Part shown: positions 7,184-54,323 of the stretch, piece by piece | How positions within the stretch are numbered: the first letter of the stretch is position 1 | Layout of the letters: each line of letters starts with the position of its first letter | Source: Acidimicrobiales bacterium | Lineage (GTDB): Bacteria > Actinomycetota > Acidimicrobiia > Acidimicrobiales > DATDAH01 | Direction: 5' to 3' | Assembly: GCA_041918615.1 (NCBI GenBank) | Contig: JAYRVH010000013.1 | Location: 190 to 64,189 of the forward strand | Length of the DNA: 64,000 bases | Notes under the pieces: generated by a model | Database searches by the model: none | What the model was told of the DNA's origin: nothing | The model's input: only the letters and a program-made list of their open reading frames with translations | Program-made: the position numbers and the translations under genes

Positions 7184-7894
7184 GTGCCCGTCATCGAGTT
7201 GGAAGCCGTTGGTCGCCACTACCAGGTCGGTGACAGCCGGGTGACCGCCCTCCGCGACGTGAGCCTGCGGGTCGACCAGGGCGAATTCCTGGTGGTGCTC
7301 GGCCCCTCGGGCTGCGGCAAGACCACGTTGTTGAACCTCATCGGGGCCCTCGACACCCCGAGCGAGGGCGACGTCCGAGTGGCCGGCGCCCGGCTCGCGG
7401 GAGCCAGCCGGAGGGACCTCTTCCGGTTCAGGCGGGAGACGGTGAGCTTCGTCTTCCAGACCTTCAACCTCTTCCCGGCGCTCACGGCCCGCGAGAACGT
7501 CCAGTTCGCCATCGACGTCGCCCGCGGGGCCCGGCCCGGCCCATCGGCTGCCGATGTGCTCGGTCGGGTGGGCCTGGGCGACCGTCTCGACCACTTCAGC
7601 CACCAGCTCTCGGGCGGCGAGCAGCAGCGGGTGGCCATCGCCCGGGCGCTGGCCACGGGGAACCCGGTGCTGTTGGCCGACGAGCCCACCGGCGAGCTCG
7701 ACTTCCGCACCGGCGTCGCCATCCTCGAGTTGCTCCACGAGCAGGCCCACGCCGGCGTGACCGTGGTCATCGTCACCCACAACCGCGAGATCAGCCGCGT
7801 GGCCGACCGGGTCATCGAGCTCTCCAGCGGTTCCGTCGTGGGCGATGGGCCCCCACCGGGGGGCACCGCCGAGATCGCGACCCTCCACTGGTGA
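7184..7894 (+). CDS. ABC transporter ATP-binding protein (MacB/LolD/FtsE-like)
   Basis: Walker A GPSGCGKTT, signature LSGGEQQRV, Walker B LLADEPTGELD. GTG start preceded by AGGAG. Confidence 0.9.
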   Translation: MPVIELEAVGRHYQVGDSRVTALRDVSLRVDQGEFLVVLGPSGCGKTTLLNLIGALDTPSEGDVRVAGARLAGASRRDLFRFRRETVSFVFQTFNLFPALTARENVQFAIDVARGARPGPSAADVLGRVGLGDRLDHFSHQLSGGEQQRVAIARALATGNPVLLADEPTGELDFRTGVAILELLHEQAHAGVTVVIVTHNREISRVADRVIELSSGSVVGDGPPPGGTAEIATLHW

Positions 7895-7919
7895 CCGCCG
7901 ACCTGGCGACGGTGAGACG

Positions 7920-10358
7920 GTGAGCACGGCCCTGCTCTGGCTGCGTTGGTCGTGGCGCGACCTGCGGGCGCGTTGGCTCCAGGTCGCGGCCATCGCCCTG
8001 ATCATCGCCATCGGGTCGGGCACGTACTCGGGGCTCACGAGCGTGTCGGCCTGGCGGCGGACGTCCTACGACGCGAGTTACGACGCCCTCGACATGTACG
8101 ACCTGCGGGTCGACCTGACCACCGGCAGCTACGCCGACACCGCGGCCCTCGTCGACGCCGCCCGTTCGATCCCCCGGGCGCGCGACATCGACCACGTCGA
8201 GGCGCGGCTGCAGGAACCGACCCAGGTGGACGCGTCGACGCCGGACGACCTGGTCCTCGTGCCGGGCCGCCTGGTGGGCGTGGACCTCACCGACGAGGGG
8301 CCACACGTGAGCGGGATCGACACCGTGACCGGGCGCGGCCTGCGGCCCGCGGATGCCGGCCGGAACGTGGTGGTGCTCGACGAGCACGTCGCCAAGCGCC
8401 ACGACCTGGCCGATCGCGGCACGATCCGACTCAGTGGCGACCGCAGGCTCCGCTACGTGGGACGGGGGCTCTCGCCCGAGAGCTTCTTCCCGGTGGACAA
8501 CCGCGGGAGCGTCTTCGCCGACTTCGCCGTCGTCTACACGTCGATCGAGACGGTCCAGCGGCTGACCGGCCACCCGGGGCAGGCCAACGGGCTGGTGCTC
8601 ACCGTCCGCTCCGGCGCCGACGTCGATCGAGTCGAGCGCCAGCTGACCGAGGCGCTCACGGCCGCCCTGGGCGACACCGGGGTGACCATCACCCGCCAGG
8701 AGGACGACCTGGTGCTCCGTCTGCTCTACGACGACATCGAGGGCGACCAGCGCTTCTACAACATCTTCGCCCTCCTCATCCTCGCCGGCGCCACCTTCGC
8801 CGCGTTCAACCTCACCGTCCGCATCGTGGAGGCCCAACGACGCGAGATCGGCATCGGCATGGCCCTCGGCGTCCCGCCGGGCAAGATAGCCGTCCGCCCC
8901 CTGCTGGTCGGGGGCCAGGTGGCCCTCCTCGGTGTCGTGTTCGGCGTGGGCGTGGGGCTGGTGATCGACGCGTTCATGGCCGATCTCCTCAGGGGCTTCT
9001 TCCCGCTGCCCATCTGGGAGTTCGCCTTCCAGCCACGCATCTTCGCCCGGGGTGCGGCACTCGGCCTGCTGCTCCCGCTGGTGGCCACCGCCGTTCCCGT
9101 CTGGCGGGCGGTCCGGGTCGCCCCGGTCGAGGCGATCAGCACCACCCATCGGGCCGCCGGGGGCGGTCTGGCCCCCTTGCTCCGGCGTGTGCCGCTCCCC
9201 GGTTCCAGCATCGGCCAGATGCCGTTCCGCAACGTGTTGCGCGAGCCTCGTCGGACCCTGCTGACCGCGCTGGGGATCGCGGCGGCCATCTGCACGCTCG
9301 TCGGCGTGATCGGCATGATCGACTCGTTCCTCGCCACCGTCGACGCCGGTGACAGCGAGATCGTCGGGGCCACGCCCGACCGGCTGACCCTCGACCTCGA
9401 GGGATTCGCCCTGAGCTCCTCCGAGGAGACGCAGTCGATCATCACCTCGCCCCTCCTCCGAGCGGCGGAGCCCGGGCTCACGCTGGGCGGGACGCTCGAG
9501 CCCGGCACCGAGGACGAGATCGACGTCCTGCTCTCGGCCGTCGACCTGCACAGCGACCTGTGGACACCCACGGCCACCGATGGACGGCTCCGCACCGACG
9601 AGCCTGGCCTCGTGGTGTCCCGAAAGGCGGCTGACGACCTCGGCGTGGGGGTCGGCGACACGGTGGTGCTGCGCCATCCACTGCGGGACGGGATCAGCTA
9701 CCGCCTCGTCGAGACCGAGCTGCCGGTCATCGCAATCCACCCCAACCCGTACCGGTTCATCACCTACATCGACATCCGCTGGGCCTCGCTGTTCGACCTG
9801 GAGGGCATCGCGAACACCATCAGGGTCGCACCGGCCGAGGGCACCAGCGTCGAGGACGTCCAGCGCGCCTTCTTCGGCCGGCCCGGGGTCGCGTCCGTCC
9901 AGCCCGTTTCCGAACTGGCCGACGGGGTCCGCGACCAGATCGACGAGGTGCTCGGCATCTTCGACGTGATCCAGGGTGCGGTCCTGCTCATGGCCCTGCT
10001 CATCGCCTTCAACTCGACCTCGATCAACATGGACGAGCGGGCGCGGGAGAATGCCACCCTGTTCGCGTTCGGGCTTCCCGTGCACCGGGCGGTGATCGTG
10101 GCGGTGACCGAGAGCGTGGTGATCGGCCTCATCGGCACGTTGGGGGGCGTGCTCGCCGGTCGGCTGCTCCTCGAATGGCTGATCCGCGTGATCGTGCCCG
10201 ACTCGCTGCCCGACATCGGGGTCGAGGTGTTCCTCTCGGGGCGGACGGTCGCCACCGCGGTCGTCCTCGGGGTGTTCGCCGTGGCCGTCGCCCCCCTTCT
10301 CACGGTGCGACGCCTGCGCCGGATGGACATCCCCTCGACGCTCCGGGTCATGGAATGA
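7920..10358 (+). CDS. ABC transporter permease with two FtsX-type modules (MacB-like)
   Basis: GTG at 7920 gives VSTALLWLRWSWRDLRARWLQVAAIALIIAIGSG... Two 4-TM FtsX-like blocks are separated by large extracytoplasmic regions. Starts 25 nt after the ATPase stop. Confidence 0.85.
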   Translation: MSTALLWLRWSWRDLRARWLQVAAIALIIAIGSGTYSGLTSVSAWRRTSYDASYDALDMYDLRVDLTTGSYADTAALVDAARSIPRARDIDHVEARLQEPTQVDASTPDDLVLVPGRLVGVDLTDEGPHVSGIDTVTGRGLRPADAGRNVVVLDEHVAKRHDLADRGTIRLSGDRRLRYVGRGLSPESFFPVDNRGSVFADFAVVYTSIETVQRLTGHPGQANGLVLTVRSGADVDRVERQLTEALTAALGDTGVTITRQEDDLVLRLLYDDIEGDQRFYNIFALLILAGATFAAFNLTVRIVEAQRREIGIGMALGVPPGKIAVRPLLVGGQVALLGVVFGVGVGLVIDAFMADLLRGFFPLPIWEFAFQPRIFARGAALGLLLPLVATAVPVWRAVRVAPVEAISTTHRAAGGGLAPLLRRVPLPGSSIGQMPFRNVLREPRRTLLTALGIAAAICTLVGVIGMIDSFLATVDAGDSEIVGATPDRLTLDLEGFALSSSEETQSIITSPLLRAAEPGLTLGGTLEPGTEDEIDVLLSAVDLHSDLWTPTATDGRLRTDEPGLVVSRKAADDLGVGVGDTVVLRHPLRDGISYRLVETELPVIAIHPNPYRFITYIDIRWASLFDLEGIANTIRVAPAEGTSVEDVQRAFFGRPGVASVQPVSELADGVRDQIDEVLGIFDVIQGAVLLMALLIAFNSTSINMDERARENATLFAFGLPVHRAVIVAVTESVVIGLIGTLGGVLAGRLLLEWLIRVIVPDSLPDIGVEVFLSGRTVATAVVLGVFAVAVAPLLTVRRLRRMDIPSTLRVME

Positions 10359-51806: not shown

Positions 51807-52865
51807 ATGAGCGCACGGTCACCCGCTGACACCCGAGCCACAGGCGCGCGGGGCACCCAGCGTCGCGACACGGTCCTCGACCTCGCACGCTTCGTCAGCG
51901 CTCTCGCGGTGCTCTCGTTCCACCACTTCTTCTGGGGTCCGTTGTGGGAGCCCGGCTCGCAGCGCTACGGATGGGCCCCCGCCGTCACGCGCTACGGCTT
52001 CCTCGGCGTCGAGGTCTTCTTCCTCATCAGCGGCTTCGTGATCCTCACGAGCTGGGAACGGCGACCACCGCTCGTCTTCCTCCGGGCGAGGTTCGCCCGG
52101 CTATTCCCGGCGTGGGTCGTGACCGTGGGCCTCCTGGGCGCGGTGCTCCTGGTCCGCGAGGGCGTCAGCCGAGGACTGCTGGCGAGGGTGGCGGCCAACC
52201 TCACCATGTTCCACTGGGTGGCCGGGGTCCCCGACTTGGACGCGGTGTATTGGAGCCTCGCCGTCGAGATCCGCTTCTACCTCTTCATGGTCGTCATCGG
52301 TGTGCTGGTCGCTCGCCGACGACTGATGGCGGTTCTGGCGGTGTGGCTCGGGGTGTCGCTCGTCTCGTTCTGGGTGCGGCTGCCGTCCGGCGTCGTCACC
52401 ATGTTGAACCTGCGTTGGGCACCGCTCTTCGTCGGGGGCATGGCCTTCGCGGACCTACGCGAGCGCGGTTCGAAGCCGTGGCACGCCCCGCTGCTGGCCG
52501 TCGCCTTCCTCGGCTCGTTCGCCGCGTCACGCCACCACGCCGGCGAGGTGAGCAAGACGACCGGCCTGGTGCACATGAACCCATGGGTGGTGCTCGCCGT
52601 GGTGTTCGGCGCGTACGCCCTGTTCGCCCTGGTGACCGTCGGCACCTTCGACCGCGTCCAGGTGCGGGCCTTCACCGTCCTGGGCGCCATGAGCTACCCC
52701 CTGTATCTCGTTCACCAGGAGATCGGATTCATCGGCCAGGCCCGCCTGTTCACGGTCCCGGCGCCCGTCGCCGAGGTCCTCGTCGTCGCCGCGGTTCTCG
52801 CCTTCGCGTGGGTGGTCCAGGCCTGGGTCGAGCCGCCCTTGCGGCGTCGGCTGGCACCGAGCTAG
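51807..52865 (+). CDS. acyltransferase family 3 membrane protein
   Basis: LDLARFVSALAVLSFHH, GVEVFFLISGFVI, about 10 TM segments. Ends at TAG 52863-52865. Confidence 0.8.
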   Translation: MSARSPADTRATGARGTQRRDTVLDLARFVSALAVLSFHHFFWGPLWEPGSQRYGWAPAVTRYGFLGVEVFFLISGFVILTSWERRPPLVFLRARFARLFPAWVVTVGLLGAVLLVREGVSRGLLARVAANLTMFHWVAGVPDLDAVYWSLAVEIRFYLFMVVIGVLVARRRLMAVLAVWLGVSLVSFWVRLPSGVVTMLNLRWAPLFVGGMAFADLRERGSKPWHAPLLAVAFLGSFAASRHHAGEVSKTTGLVHMNPWVVLAVVFGAYALFALVTVGTFDRVQVRAFTVLGAMSYPLYLVHQEIGFIGQARLFTVPAPVAEVLVVAAVLAFAWVVQAWVEPPLRRRLAPS

Positions 52866-53072
52866 GAAGACCCCCTGCCCACCAGCCGCGCGCCCGGTCG
52901 CCAACATCACCTCCGGCTACCGCATCACTGGCCACCGTCGGTCACGCCCACCCGCTTCTTCATCGTTGTCGCCGGCGCGGTCGGCCTGGCCCTCGCCACA
53001 CTGCTCCCTGCCTTCAGCGGCATCGACGAGTCGGGGCACTTCTACCGCACCTACCAGATCACCGACGGCCAG

Positions 53073-54323
53073 GTGGTGCCCGTCGAGAGCGGGACTGGCG
53101 CGGGGAGCGGCGGCGGGGCCTGCCTGCCGCGACCGGTGGTCGACGAGGTGGAGCGGCACAAGGCAGCTGCCTATCGGCGCTACCTCGTCGAGGCGGGCCG
53201 AATCCGGGAGGCCGAATCCGGGGCGAGTCGGCCCCGACCGGAAGGCCCCGCCTGCAGGAGCGATCCCGACACCGAGTTCGCGCAGTTCGCCACCTACGCG
53301 TGGTACTCCCCCTTGGGCTACGTGCCCCAGGTCCTCGGGGTCGGTCTCGGCCGCCTGGCGGGGCTCGGGCCAGCGGGCATGCTCCTCCTCGCCCGGCTGG
53401 CGACGCTGGCGGCGTCCATCGCCATCAGCGCCATCGCCATCCGGCGCACGCCGTGGGCGCCCTGGGCGTTCGTTGCCATCGGCCTCCTGCCGTCCACCCT
53501 GTTCCAGGCCGCCACGTCGATCTCGCCGGACGCCCTCACCACCGCCATGGCGATGCTGGTGCTCGCCTCGGCCCTTCGGATCACCGCTCGTCCAGAACGC
53601 CCCTGGGCCCCGCAACTCGCCGAGGCCGTCGGGCTGACGCTGGTGCTGGCCCTGTGCAAGCCGACCTACGTGCTCGTTACGGCGGCCTACCTGATGCCGT
53701 TGTTGCGTCGTCCGGTCGAACGGGGCCGCCGGCTCCTGCTCGCGGCCGTGCCGGTGCTCGGTCTCGGCGTGTCCGCGCTCTGGCAGCGCAGCCAACGGCA
53801 CCTCTTCATCTGTGACACCCGTCTCTTCGGTATCGGAGCGGACCCGGCGGCGCAGGCCACCCAGATCCTGCATCGCCCTCACCTCCTCGTTGCCGGGATG
53901 GCCGAGGCGACCGCCCGGTTCGGCGGGGAGTGGCTCGACGACCTGATCCGCATCGGGGACAAGGACCTCACCTGGTCGAGGCCTGCCGTTCTCGTGGGCG
54001 TCGCCCTGTTCATCGGCGTCGCCACCCGGTCGGCCGACCGCAGCGGCTTCGCGCTCGCCCCTCGGCACCGGGCCCTGCTCGGTGTCCTCTTCCTCGGCGG
54101 AATCGGAGCCGTGCTGGGAGGCTGGTTCCTGTACTGCAACAGCCCCACCTTCCGTATCGACATCGCCCCGAGCGCTCGCCTGTTCGGGCCGTTCCTGCCC
54201 GTTCTGGCCGTGGCCGTCGCACCGTCCCGAAGGGGCAGCGGCGGCTTCGGGCAGTGGTGCACCGCGCTGCTGGTCCCCTTCTATCTCGTGTGGACGACCC
54301 AACTCCTGGCGCACCAGCTCTGA
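53073..54323 (+). CDS. DUF2142-like polytopic membrane protein; the true N-terminus probably lies upstream of the first canonical start
   Basis: 53073 (GTG) is the first ATG/GTG/TTG after the TAG at 52863. The same frame upstream encodes a TM helix plus ..PAFSGIDESGHFYRTYQITDGQ, which looks like the conserved family N-terminus. See findings. Confidence 0.65.
   Translation: MVPVESGTGAGSGGGACLPRPVVDEVERHKAAAYRRYLVEAGRIREAESGASRPRPEGPACRSDPDTEFAQFATYAWYSPLGYVPQVLGVGLGRLAGLGPAGMLLLARLATLAASIAISAIAIRRTPWAPWAFVAIGLLPSTLFQAATSISPDALTTAMAMLVLASALRITARPERPWAPQLAEAVGLTLVLALCKPTYVLVTAAYLMPLLRRPVERGRRLLLAAVPVLGLGVSALWQRSQRHLFICDTRLFGIGADPAAQATQILHRPHLLVAGMAEATARFGGEWLDDLIRIGDKDLTWSRPAVLVGVALFIGVATRSADRSGFALAPRHRALLGVLFLGGIGAVLGGWFLYCNSPTFRIDIAPSARLFGPFLPVLAVAVAPSRRGSGGFGQWCTALLVPFYLVWTTQLLAHQL

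Follow-up and report, generated by a model that had tools for sequence, protein, structure and literature searches.

The window analyzed here is a stretch of 64,000 nucleotides from contig JAYRVH010000013.1 of a 93-contig draft genome, in which a gene for a membrane O-acyltransferase is followed by a gene for a membrane protein of the DUF2142 family. The features of the locus are as follows.

51807..52865, + strand: gene for a 352-aa membrane O-acyltransferase with a complete Acyl_transf_3 domain and a TAG stop
52863..52865, + strand: TAG that terminates the acyltransferase and shares its frame with the DUF2142 gene, invariant in 7 haplotypes
52864..52869, + strand: Shine-Dalgarno (SD)-like AGGAAG overlapping the TAG, AGGAAA or AGGAGA in other haplotypes
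52875..52877, + strand: proposed CTG start of the DUF2142 gene, invariant in 7 haplotypes
52875..54323, + strand: full-length DUF2142 coding sequence as re-annotated here, 482 aa, GT-C-like polytopic membrane protein, Pfam PF09913
52947..53003, + strand: first transmembrane helix (TM1), residues 25-43 counted from the CTG, beginning at conserved Pro25, a helix in the model
53025..53048, + strand: family-defining motif D51-E52-S-G-H55-F-Y-R58, just after TM1, from a family alignment of 31 sequences
53073..53075, + strand: GTG from which public gene calls begin their 416-aa product; counted from the CTG, it encodes the internal residue Val67

Residues 24-337 of the 352-aa acyltransferase match Pfam PF01757 (E=1.1e-23), covering positions 4-324 of the 326 in the profile, so that the TAG coincides with the domain's natural end. 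Among haplotypes the gene has a pN/pS of 0.07-0.19 where this could be computed. No promoter-like or terminator-like site was seen between the acyltransferase and DUF2142 genes. The neighbors of the DUF2142 gene are the O-acyltransferase, a patatin lipase and a GerMN/AMIN protein.

The original prediction placed both genes in one frame across the single TAG at 52863-52865, and the reading of the frame after the TAG, EDPLPTSRAPGRQHHLRLPHHWPPSVTPTRFFIVVAGAVGLALATLLPAFSGIDESGHFYRTYQITDGQ before GTG 53073, matches that description. It had also stated that the DUF2142 frame has no ATG, GTG or TTG before 53073, which agrees with the listing of open reading frames, where 53073 is the first such codon; the 69 codons between the TAG and the GTG include none of the three in frame, and none was found in any frame when they were sought over positions 52866-52965. 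The chance of 69 coding codons lacking a start-like codon is estimated at roughly 2%, which is not rare, and what makes the locus anomalous is that the start-less stretch encodes the family's conserved N-terminus.

The conserved N-terminus of the DUF2142 protein

Compared with PF09913, the DUF2142 open reading frame scores 113.7 bits (gathering cut-off 30.1; E=1.2e-32) over residues 39-338, numbered from stop to stop. The match begins at position 3 of the 395 in the profile, and its first residue, 39, lies 31 codons 5' of the GTG. In the alignment of 31 family members, E52 and H55 are two of only eight invariant residues, and P25, D51 and R58, numbered from the CTG, are conserved in at least 90% of the sequences; all five positions are encoded upstream of the GTG, which corresponds to V67. 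The predicted transmembrane helix and conserved DE.GHF.R block upstream of 53073 are thus recovered by both the family alignment and the structural model, and alignment with homologues, proposed earlier as a check, places the onset of the conserved region upstream of 53073 and not at or after it. A total of 4771 homologues were found. Nearly all of the best 150 of these 4771 stand alone, with lengths of 450-500 aa, and they become homologous at query residues 26-30, behind tails of 4-60 residues; initiation at the CTG would give a 24-residue tail, inside this range, and in some homologues the tail is just 4-7 residues long.

An AlphaFold model of the 482-aa product (pLDDT 90.3, pTM 0.91) has about 11 long helices, with TM1 as a helix spanning residues 25-43 within a block of pLDDT 92-98, and with the motif opening a helix at residues 52-63. 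GT-C enzymes carry a catalytic Asp or Glu after TM1. In the structural search the DUF2142 model matches GT-C glycosyltransferases (ArnT, PglB, AftD, EmbA/B and ALG3/6/9/12) best, with ALG3, PglB, AftD and ArnT leading the Foldseek matches at probabilities up to 0.98-0.99. The conserved acidic motif of the DUF2142 product likewise follows TM1. The Foldseek matches have a best E of 4.9e-3, none at or below 0.001, and TM-scores of 0.28-0.45, so that the product is at most GT-C-like. No meaningful relatives in the PDB were found by sequence profile. Lactococcal DUF2142 proteins of the WpsI/WpsJ type are putative polysaccharide polymerases or transferases encoded in cwps/rgp clusters (PMC12599335, PMC9746298). 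They resemble the present product in their PF09913 match, polytopic helices, acidic post-TM1 motif and envelope-glycan gene neighborhood, and differ from it in their rhamnan gene neighbors, which are not seen here; identity of the present product to any characterized DUF2142 member is low.

Seven haplotypes from independent metagenomes share the TAG, the CTG and the lack of a canonical start upstream of TM1. These haplotypes are close (92-100% DNA identity), and because of this the invariance of the CTG alone carries little weight. Across 52866-53072 the haplotypes vary at 8 synonymous and 4 non-synonymous sites (binomial p=0.004), with a ratio of 7:3 when only positions from the CTG onward are counted (p=0.005). 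The start-less stretch has a pN/pS of 0.14, as compared to 0.14-0.34 for the body of the DUF2142 gene. The two variable sites between the CTG and TM1, 52892 and 52919, are both synonymous third positions (p about 0.08), and 2 of the 9 nucleotides in the spacer separating TAG and CTG are variable (Fisher p=0.05). The stretch 5' of GTG 53073 is coding and under selection. The GTG itself is not a conserved start, as it is replaced by GCG (Ala) in three of the seven haplotypes, where gene callers chose instead GTG 53076, for 415 aa, or TTG 53001, a synonymous change, for 440 aa.

Candidate start codons and competing explanations

Four explanations had been listed in the original prediction with none chosen: a rare initiator, either CTG 52875 or an ATC or ATT; a nonsense mutation or sequencing error splitting a fusion; programmed read-through of the TAG; and an N-terminally truncated, possibly inactive protein. 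The first of these, in its CTG form, is favored here; the ATC/ATT form and the remaining three are not. The most likely account is that the gene with no apparent start is a real gene and an ordinary, already known kind of exception, a rare-start gene, and we infer, with a probability of about 0.68, that translation of the DUF2142 protein starts at the near-cognate codon CTG 52875, in the second gene of an operon.

A listing of codons showed that CTG 52875 is the only CTG, ATT, ATC or ATA upstream of the family-conserved region. The only ATC, at 52962, was considered as a start and rejected; it lies downstream of conserved Pro25 and inside TM1, which makes an ATC or ATT start unlikely. Two further candidates were set aside, namely a frameshift from another frame, as the upstream gene already shares the frame and no ATG, GTG or TTG stands in any frame over 52866-52965, and a leaderless internal transcript, for which there is neither an AUG or GUG to form a 5' end nor a promoter-like site.

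The 16S rRNA tail is canonical (...CACCTCCTTTCT), and the AGGA core upstream of the CTG ends 7 nt before it, the distance most common among SD cores of the genome; an AGGA-type core at 4-8 nt precedes only 5.5% of internal CTG codons. The SD duplex at the CTG, at -5.1 kcal/mol, is no better than the median for crude starts, and 39% of internal CTGs reach this energy. The SD-like site is therefore weak, and by duplex energy it is not separable from background. For Escherichia coli, initiation at CUG has been put at about 1-2% of that at AUG (bioRxiv 10.1101/063800), so low output would be expected unless the lineage, or coupling to the upstream gene, does better.

Under initiation at the CTG, the start would lie 9 nt after the TAG of the acyltransferase gene, with the weak AGGA(A/G) ribosome-binding core overlapping the stop, and ribosomes finishing the acyltransferase would probably re-initiate there by translational coupling. 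The 482-aa product would open with a cytoplasmic tail, some 24 residues long and disordered, followed by TM1, the D-E-x-x-H-x-x-R motif and the remainder of a GT-C-like polytopic fold, and the weak codon would keep it scarcer than its acyltransferase partner. Such coupling to a weak start could plausibly serve to limit the copy number of a polytopic glycosyltransferase-like protein, and as a mechanism it is of an expected kind and not surprising. One tryptic peptide predicted from the CTG start, residues 15-27, is LPHHWPPSVTPTR.

The alternative that survives best, though it is unlikely, is that a different non-canonical codon in the segment from the CTG to Pro25 serves as the start. Its leading example is ACG 52944, which stands directly before the conserved Pro25 (M-PTRFFIVV...), would possibly be used by re-initiation, and would fit the 4-7 residue tails of some homologues. 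Upstream of this ACG there is no SD-like sequence (duplex -2.7 kcal/mol), and the synonymous changes at 52892 and 52919, both upstream of the ACG and in frame, weakly suggest that this segment is translated. Furthermore, ACG is outside the starts of NCBI table 11, and the precedents in the lineage are CTG and ATC/ATA.

It is a little less probable still that the gene is broken, with its ancestral start lost and either no protein made or a truncated, inactive one from GTG 53073 or 53076. In favor of this account, the gene has no canonical start and is accessory, missing from 29 of 30 related GTDB genomes. However, the changes among haplotypes postdate the putative loss, yet they record purifying selection both in the start-less stretch and in the gene body. 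The supposed internal start is the very GTG that is not conserved, and translation from V67 would leave out TM1 together with the invariant residues E52 and H55. Both the selection seen in the start-less stretch and the inconstancy of GTG 53073 contradict the earlier suggestion of a truncated or inactive protein.

Read-through of the TAG, whether programmed or leaky, to give a bifunctional Acyl_transf_3-DUF2142 fusion is improbable. In every haplotype the acyltransferase frame continues across one TAG into the DUF2142 gene, and at the locus of the closest full-length homologue the acyltransferase and DUF2142 genes are again neighbors. The topology would also be compatible, with a presumed cytoplasmic C-terminus of the acyltransferase meeting a cytoplasmic N-terminus of the DUF2142 protein, since the topology of 10-TM Acyl_transf_3 proteins would presumably put the C-terminus in the cytoplasm. 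Against this, in-frame arrangement is expected by chance in one case in three, and at the locus of that homologue the acyltransferase is on the opposite strand. None of the 61 tRNAs found by Aragorn has a CUA anticodon, the PylS model TIGR02367 has no match in the genome, TAG is an ordinary stop that ends 461 of 2451 crude open reading frames (about 19%), and the RNA at the junction has no structure beyond that of shuffled controls (z=0.10); together these observations speak against programmed read-through. The search for fused relatives, suggested earlier as a check, covered the top 150 representatives and word-sharing candidates and found no acyltransferase-DUF2142 fusion. None of the longer homologues (550-911 aa) among the best 150 of 4771 has an Acyl_transf_3 domain, four long ones (P0107, P0117, P0089 and P0150) have N-terminal extensions with no Pfam domain at all, and among the word-sharing candidates the fusion query found two DUF2142-only proteins and no fusion.

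A variant just as improbable is a TAG that is leaky by design, at which most ribosomes would terminate, some would re-initiate at the CTG and a few would make the fusion, with the recurrence of the layout at rapZ, described below, then marking an expression device specific to the lineage and not a coincidence. If true, a bifunctional O-acyltransferase-GT-C fusion would exist beside the two separate proteins. With seven haplotypes keeping the TAG, the explanation by an error also falls away, and with homologues standing alone and no fusion among the top 150 representatives and the word-sharing candidates, a split fusion is unsupported. An error of sequencing or assembly that masks a start or sense codon has next to no probability, draft genome of 93 contigs notwithstanding, as the same junction occurs in seven haplotypes, comes from independent assemblies of more than six samples, and has exact copies in three other assemblies; judged from these assembled sequences, a sequencing error behind the TAG is excluded.

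Near-cognate starts in the lineage and their consequences

[quoted passage not shown] The DUF2142 gene resembles such genes in having a conserved N-terminus 5' of all ATG, GTG and TTG codons and one near-cognate codon behind an SD-like core. It differs in that the autoregulatory logic of infC is not evident for an accessory envelope gene, and in that its use of CTG is deduced. The likeness to translationally coupled genes lies in a proposed start 9 nt after the stop, an SD-like sequence that overlaps the stop, and the lack of a promoter or terminator between the genes; classic coupled genes, in contrast, overlap (ATGA or GTGA) and have canonical starts, whereas here there is a 9-nt gap and a putative CTG start.

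Precedents were found within the lineage itself. The mreB gene starts at CTG throughout the genus, at the position where other genera have ATG or GTG, and in three genomes there is an in-frame stop two codons upstream. Similarly, the ATG or GTG that begins rapZ elsewhere is replaced by ATC, or in one genome by ATA, and in the source genome 9 nt separate the ATC from the in-frame TAG that ends an upstream methyltransferase gene, the same layout of TAG, 9 nt and near-cognate start as at the DUF2142 gene. The lineage thus uses CTG and ATC starts. For mreB and rapZ, canonical starts of relatives could be aligned with the near-cognate codon, and for the DUF2142 gene they could not, because no syntenic orthologue at intermediate divergence, with an ATG or GTG opposite the CTG, was found among the 30 related genomes, and the contig search gave one Acidimicrobiia locus, 34% identical.

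One consequence concerns annotation. With a start at the CTG, the public 416-aa entry is 66 residues too short at its N-terminus, and every public copy, whether of 415, 416 or 440 aa according to which internal codon was called, lacks TM1 and the Glu/His motif; structure or function predictions made from the public entries would be wrong because these two elements, the motif being invariant, are missing. A second is that near-cognate starts on core genes, CTG on mreB and ATC/ATA on rapZ, have been kept over timescales from genus to order. Gene callers that accept only ATG, GTG and TTG will systematically truncate a small set of the lineage's proteins. In a crude genome-wide scan of 2450 open reading frames, 10 start-less 5' stretches, the DUF2142 stretch included, passed a coding-like filter of at least 30 start-less codons, the last 30 with GC3 of at least 0.87, GC2 of at most 0.60 and GC1 of at most 0.85.

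Junction layout and the N-terminus of the DUF2142 protein

The DUF2142 gene follows, in the same frame, the stop codon of an acyltransferase gene:

51807 (ATG) to 52865 (TAG at 52863-52865), plus strand: Acyl_transf_3 gene (PF01757, E=1.1e-23), domain complete
52864-52869, plus strand: Shine-Dalgarno (SD)-like AGGAAG, overlapping the TAG stop, upstream of CTG 52875

Translation of the window agrees letter for letter with the original prediction of a start-less, in-frame DUF2142 N-terminus after the TAG: 69 open codons devoid of ATG, GTG and TTG lead up to GTG 53073, and the frame runs on from there to a stop at 54321-54323. From 52866 to 52965 none of the frames offers a canonical start. Pfam DUF2142 matches with E=1.2e-32 from profile position 3 onward, which falls on residue 39 of the stop-to-stop ORF, 31 codons upstream of GTG 53073. 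No promoter-like or terminator-like site was found between the two genes, and folding against shuffled controls revealed no RNA structure at the TAG/CTG junction; the arrangement matches a translationally coupled operon junction. Within the coding sequence of the N-terminal tail, CATCACCTCCGG (52905-52916) copies the anti-SD core CACCTCC of the 16S tail and could pair with the AGGA site ~40 nt upstream; in folding, however, the region was no more structured than shuffled controls.

The DUF2142 family's real N-terminus is encoded by the start-less stretch. Homologous proteins P0003-P0006 (~40% identity) align through it, showing a hydrophobic helix and, after it, GIDExxHFxRxYQ. An exhaustive HMMER search returned 4771 DUF2142 homologues; among the best 150 of these, nearly all are stand-alone proteins of 450-500 aa, and homology to the query opens at query residues 26-30, after tails of ~4-60 residues. 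Alignment with homologues, by which the original prediction had proposed to define the N-terminus, thus places the opening of the conserved region upstream of GTG 53073 (Val67). Residues E52 and H55 (numbered from CTG 52875) do not vary in a 31-sequence alignment, in which P25, D51 and R58 are at least 90% conserved; all five lie upstream of Val67. The AlphaFold model built on this alignment (pLDDT 90.3, pTM 0.91) has a disordered tail at 1-20, a first transmembrane helix (TM1) at 25-43 and a motif helix at 52-63. With a start at CTG 52875, the public calls of the protein would all be N-terminally truncated, by 66 residues.

The solved folds nearest to the model are the GT-C glycosyltransferases ALG3, PglB, AftD and ArnT, matched weakly (best E 4.9e-3), and no relative by sequence was seen in the PDB. 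DUF2142 proteins are described as polytopic putative polysaccharide polymerases or transferases of cell-wall polysaccharide clusters (PMC9746298, PMC12599335). Two homologues from ENA assemblies, P0006 (723 aa) and P0008 (413 aa), carry Arg/Ala-rich, nonsense-like C-terminal sequence past ~residue 400-470, which has the look of frameshifts or wrongly called ORFs in contigs of high GC, not of real extensions.

The start codon

Members of 415, 416 and 440 aa occur in the annotated protein's 90%-identity clusters, and their contigs yielded seven distinct junction haplotypes from independent metagenome samples. In all seven the TAG and CTG 52875 are preserved and no canonical start precedes TM1. 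CTG 52875 is also the only table-11 near-cognate codon between the TAG and the conserved Pro25, and the rare initiator that the original prediction had listed among its explanations is accordingly favoured. ATC 52962 was rejected as a start, being downstream of Pro25 and inside TM1. The likeliest mechanism, with a probability of roughly two in three, is that ribosomes initiate at CTG 52875 and not at an ATG, GTG or TTG; coupling to termination at the TAG would probably aid them.

A gap of 7 nt, the modal one for SD cores in this genome, separates the AGGA core from the CTG; of internal CTG codons, just 5.5% have a core 4-8 nt ahead of them. The 16S tail is canonical, and one haplotype carries AGGAG, an improved site. 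The duplex energy of -5.1 kcal/mol is average and not above background, so the site lends the CTG start weak support. Two variable sites fall in the 9 nt from TAG to CTG and two, both synonymous third positions, in the next 78 nt (Fisher p=0.05). Another non-canonical codon, such as ACG 52944, is an unlikely start, with neither an SD nor a precedent in the data from this lineage.

The CUG codon supports initiation in E. coli at about 1-2% of the AUG level (10.1101/063800). The proposed CTG start would add one more case to a known phenomenon.

Near-cognate starts elsewhere in the genome

Coding-like 5' stretches without a start were sought genome-wide in a crude scan, which gave ten candidates; for two of these, both core genes, a comparison with relatives was possible:

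Contig C7, 117490-118578, minus strand: mreB, CTG at plus-strand coordinate 118500; compared with relatives' loci L023-L039
Contig C77, ATC 237654 to 238505, plus strand: rapZ, RapZ-like N-terminal domain with Walker A motif; relatives' loci L042-L058

The mreB gene has no ATG, GTG or TTG upstream of its DLGTANT motif, and its CTG, aligned exactly with the ATG or GTG of other genera, recurs in two other families of the order and in each of the six further same-genus genomes that yielded the gene. Three genomes have an in-frame stop just two codons before the CTG, which leaves no alternative to it. For rapZ, both genera of the family have ATC as the start (one genome has ATA), at the alignment position where other families have ATG or GTG. 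In this genome the ATC lies 9 nt past the in-frame TAG of an upstream SAM-methyltransferase-like gene, the same architecture as the DUF2142 junction. From these two starts, near-cognate initiation is clearly tolerated by the organism's translation apparatus and evolutionary history. On the minus strand of contig C50 (reverse-complement coordinates 7885-8880), a tyrosine-integrase-like ORF shows 74 coding-like codons with no start; its Phage_int_SAM_1 match opens upstream of the first GTG, with ATC or CTG as candidate starts.

Decay, read-through and error

The original prediction had also allowed for an N-terminally truncated, possibly inactive protein, a reading in conflict with the pattern of selection. 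Variable sites in 52866-53072 are synonymous in 8 cases and non-synonymous in 4, against a neutral expectation of ~27% synonymous (binomial p=0.004), and pN/pS (Nei-Gojobori) is 0.12-0.22 in the start-less stretch, 0.14-0.34 in the gene body and 0.07-0.19, where computable, in the acyltransferase. Because every haplotype lacks a canonical start, the selection under which these substitutions arose acted on a protein with the stretch included; the gene is neither an error nor dead. GTG 53073 itself is GCG (Ala) in three of the seven haplotypes, and gene callers consequently shifted to GTG 53076 or to TTG 53001, a synonymous CTG-to-TTG change inside TM1.

TAG read-through, or a split acyltransferase-DUF2142 fusion, finds no support. 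Neither a tRNA-CUA nor PylS was found in the genome, where TAG terminates 461 of 2451 crude ORFs; long homologues among the top 150 lack an Acyl_transf_3 domain, a query with the fused sequence retrieved no fused protein among word-sharing candidates, and the acyltransferase is encoded divergently in the locus of the nearest full-length homologue. In that locus (P0003; L021:1-2889, L022:556-1422) a stand-alone DUF2142 gene lies behind a spacer of 111 nt, an SGNH gene and a gene for an Acyl_transf_3-SGNH fusion diverge from it, and a GT2 glycosyltransferase gene comes after it; the association of acyltransferase with DUF2142 thus recurs without fusion. Sequencing error is excluded, since independent assemblies share the junction, with the same TAG in 7/7 haplotypes; the window's own version has exact copies in three other assemblies.

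Among the tRNA genes called by aragorn is a tRNA-SeC (UCA) at 64988-65083 of one contig, which makes UGA-selenocysteine recoding probable for this organism's genome; an odd tRNA-like call (tRNA-???, two-base anticodon) lies at 127861-127953 of another.
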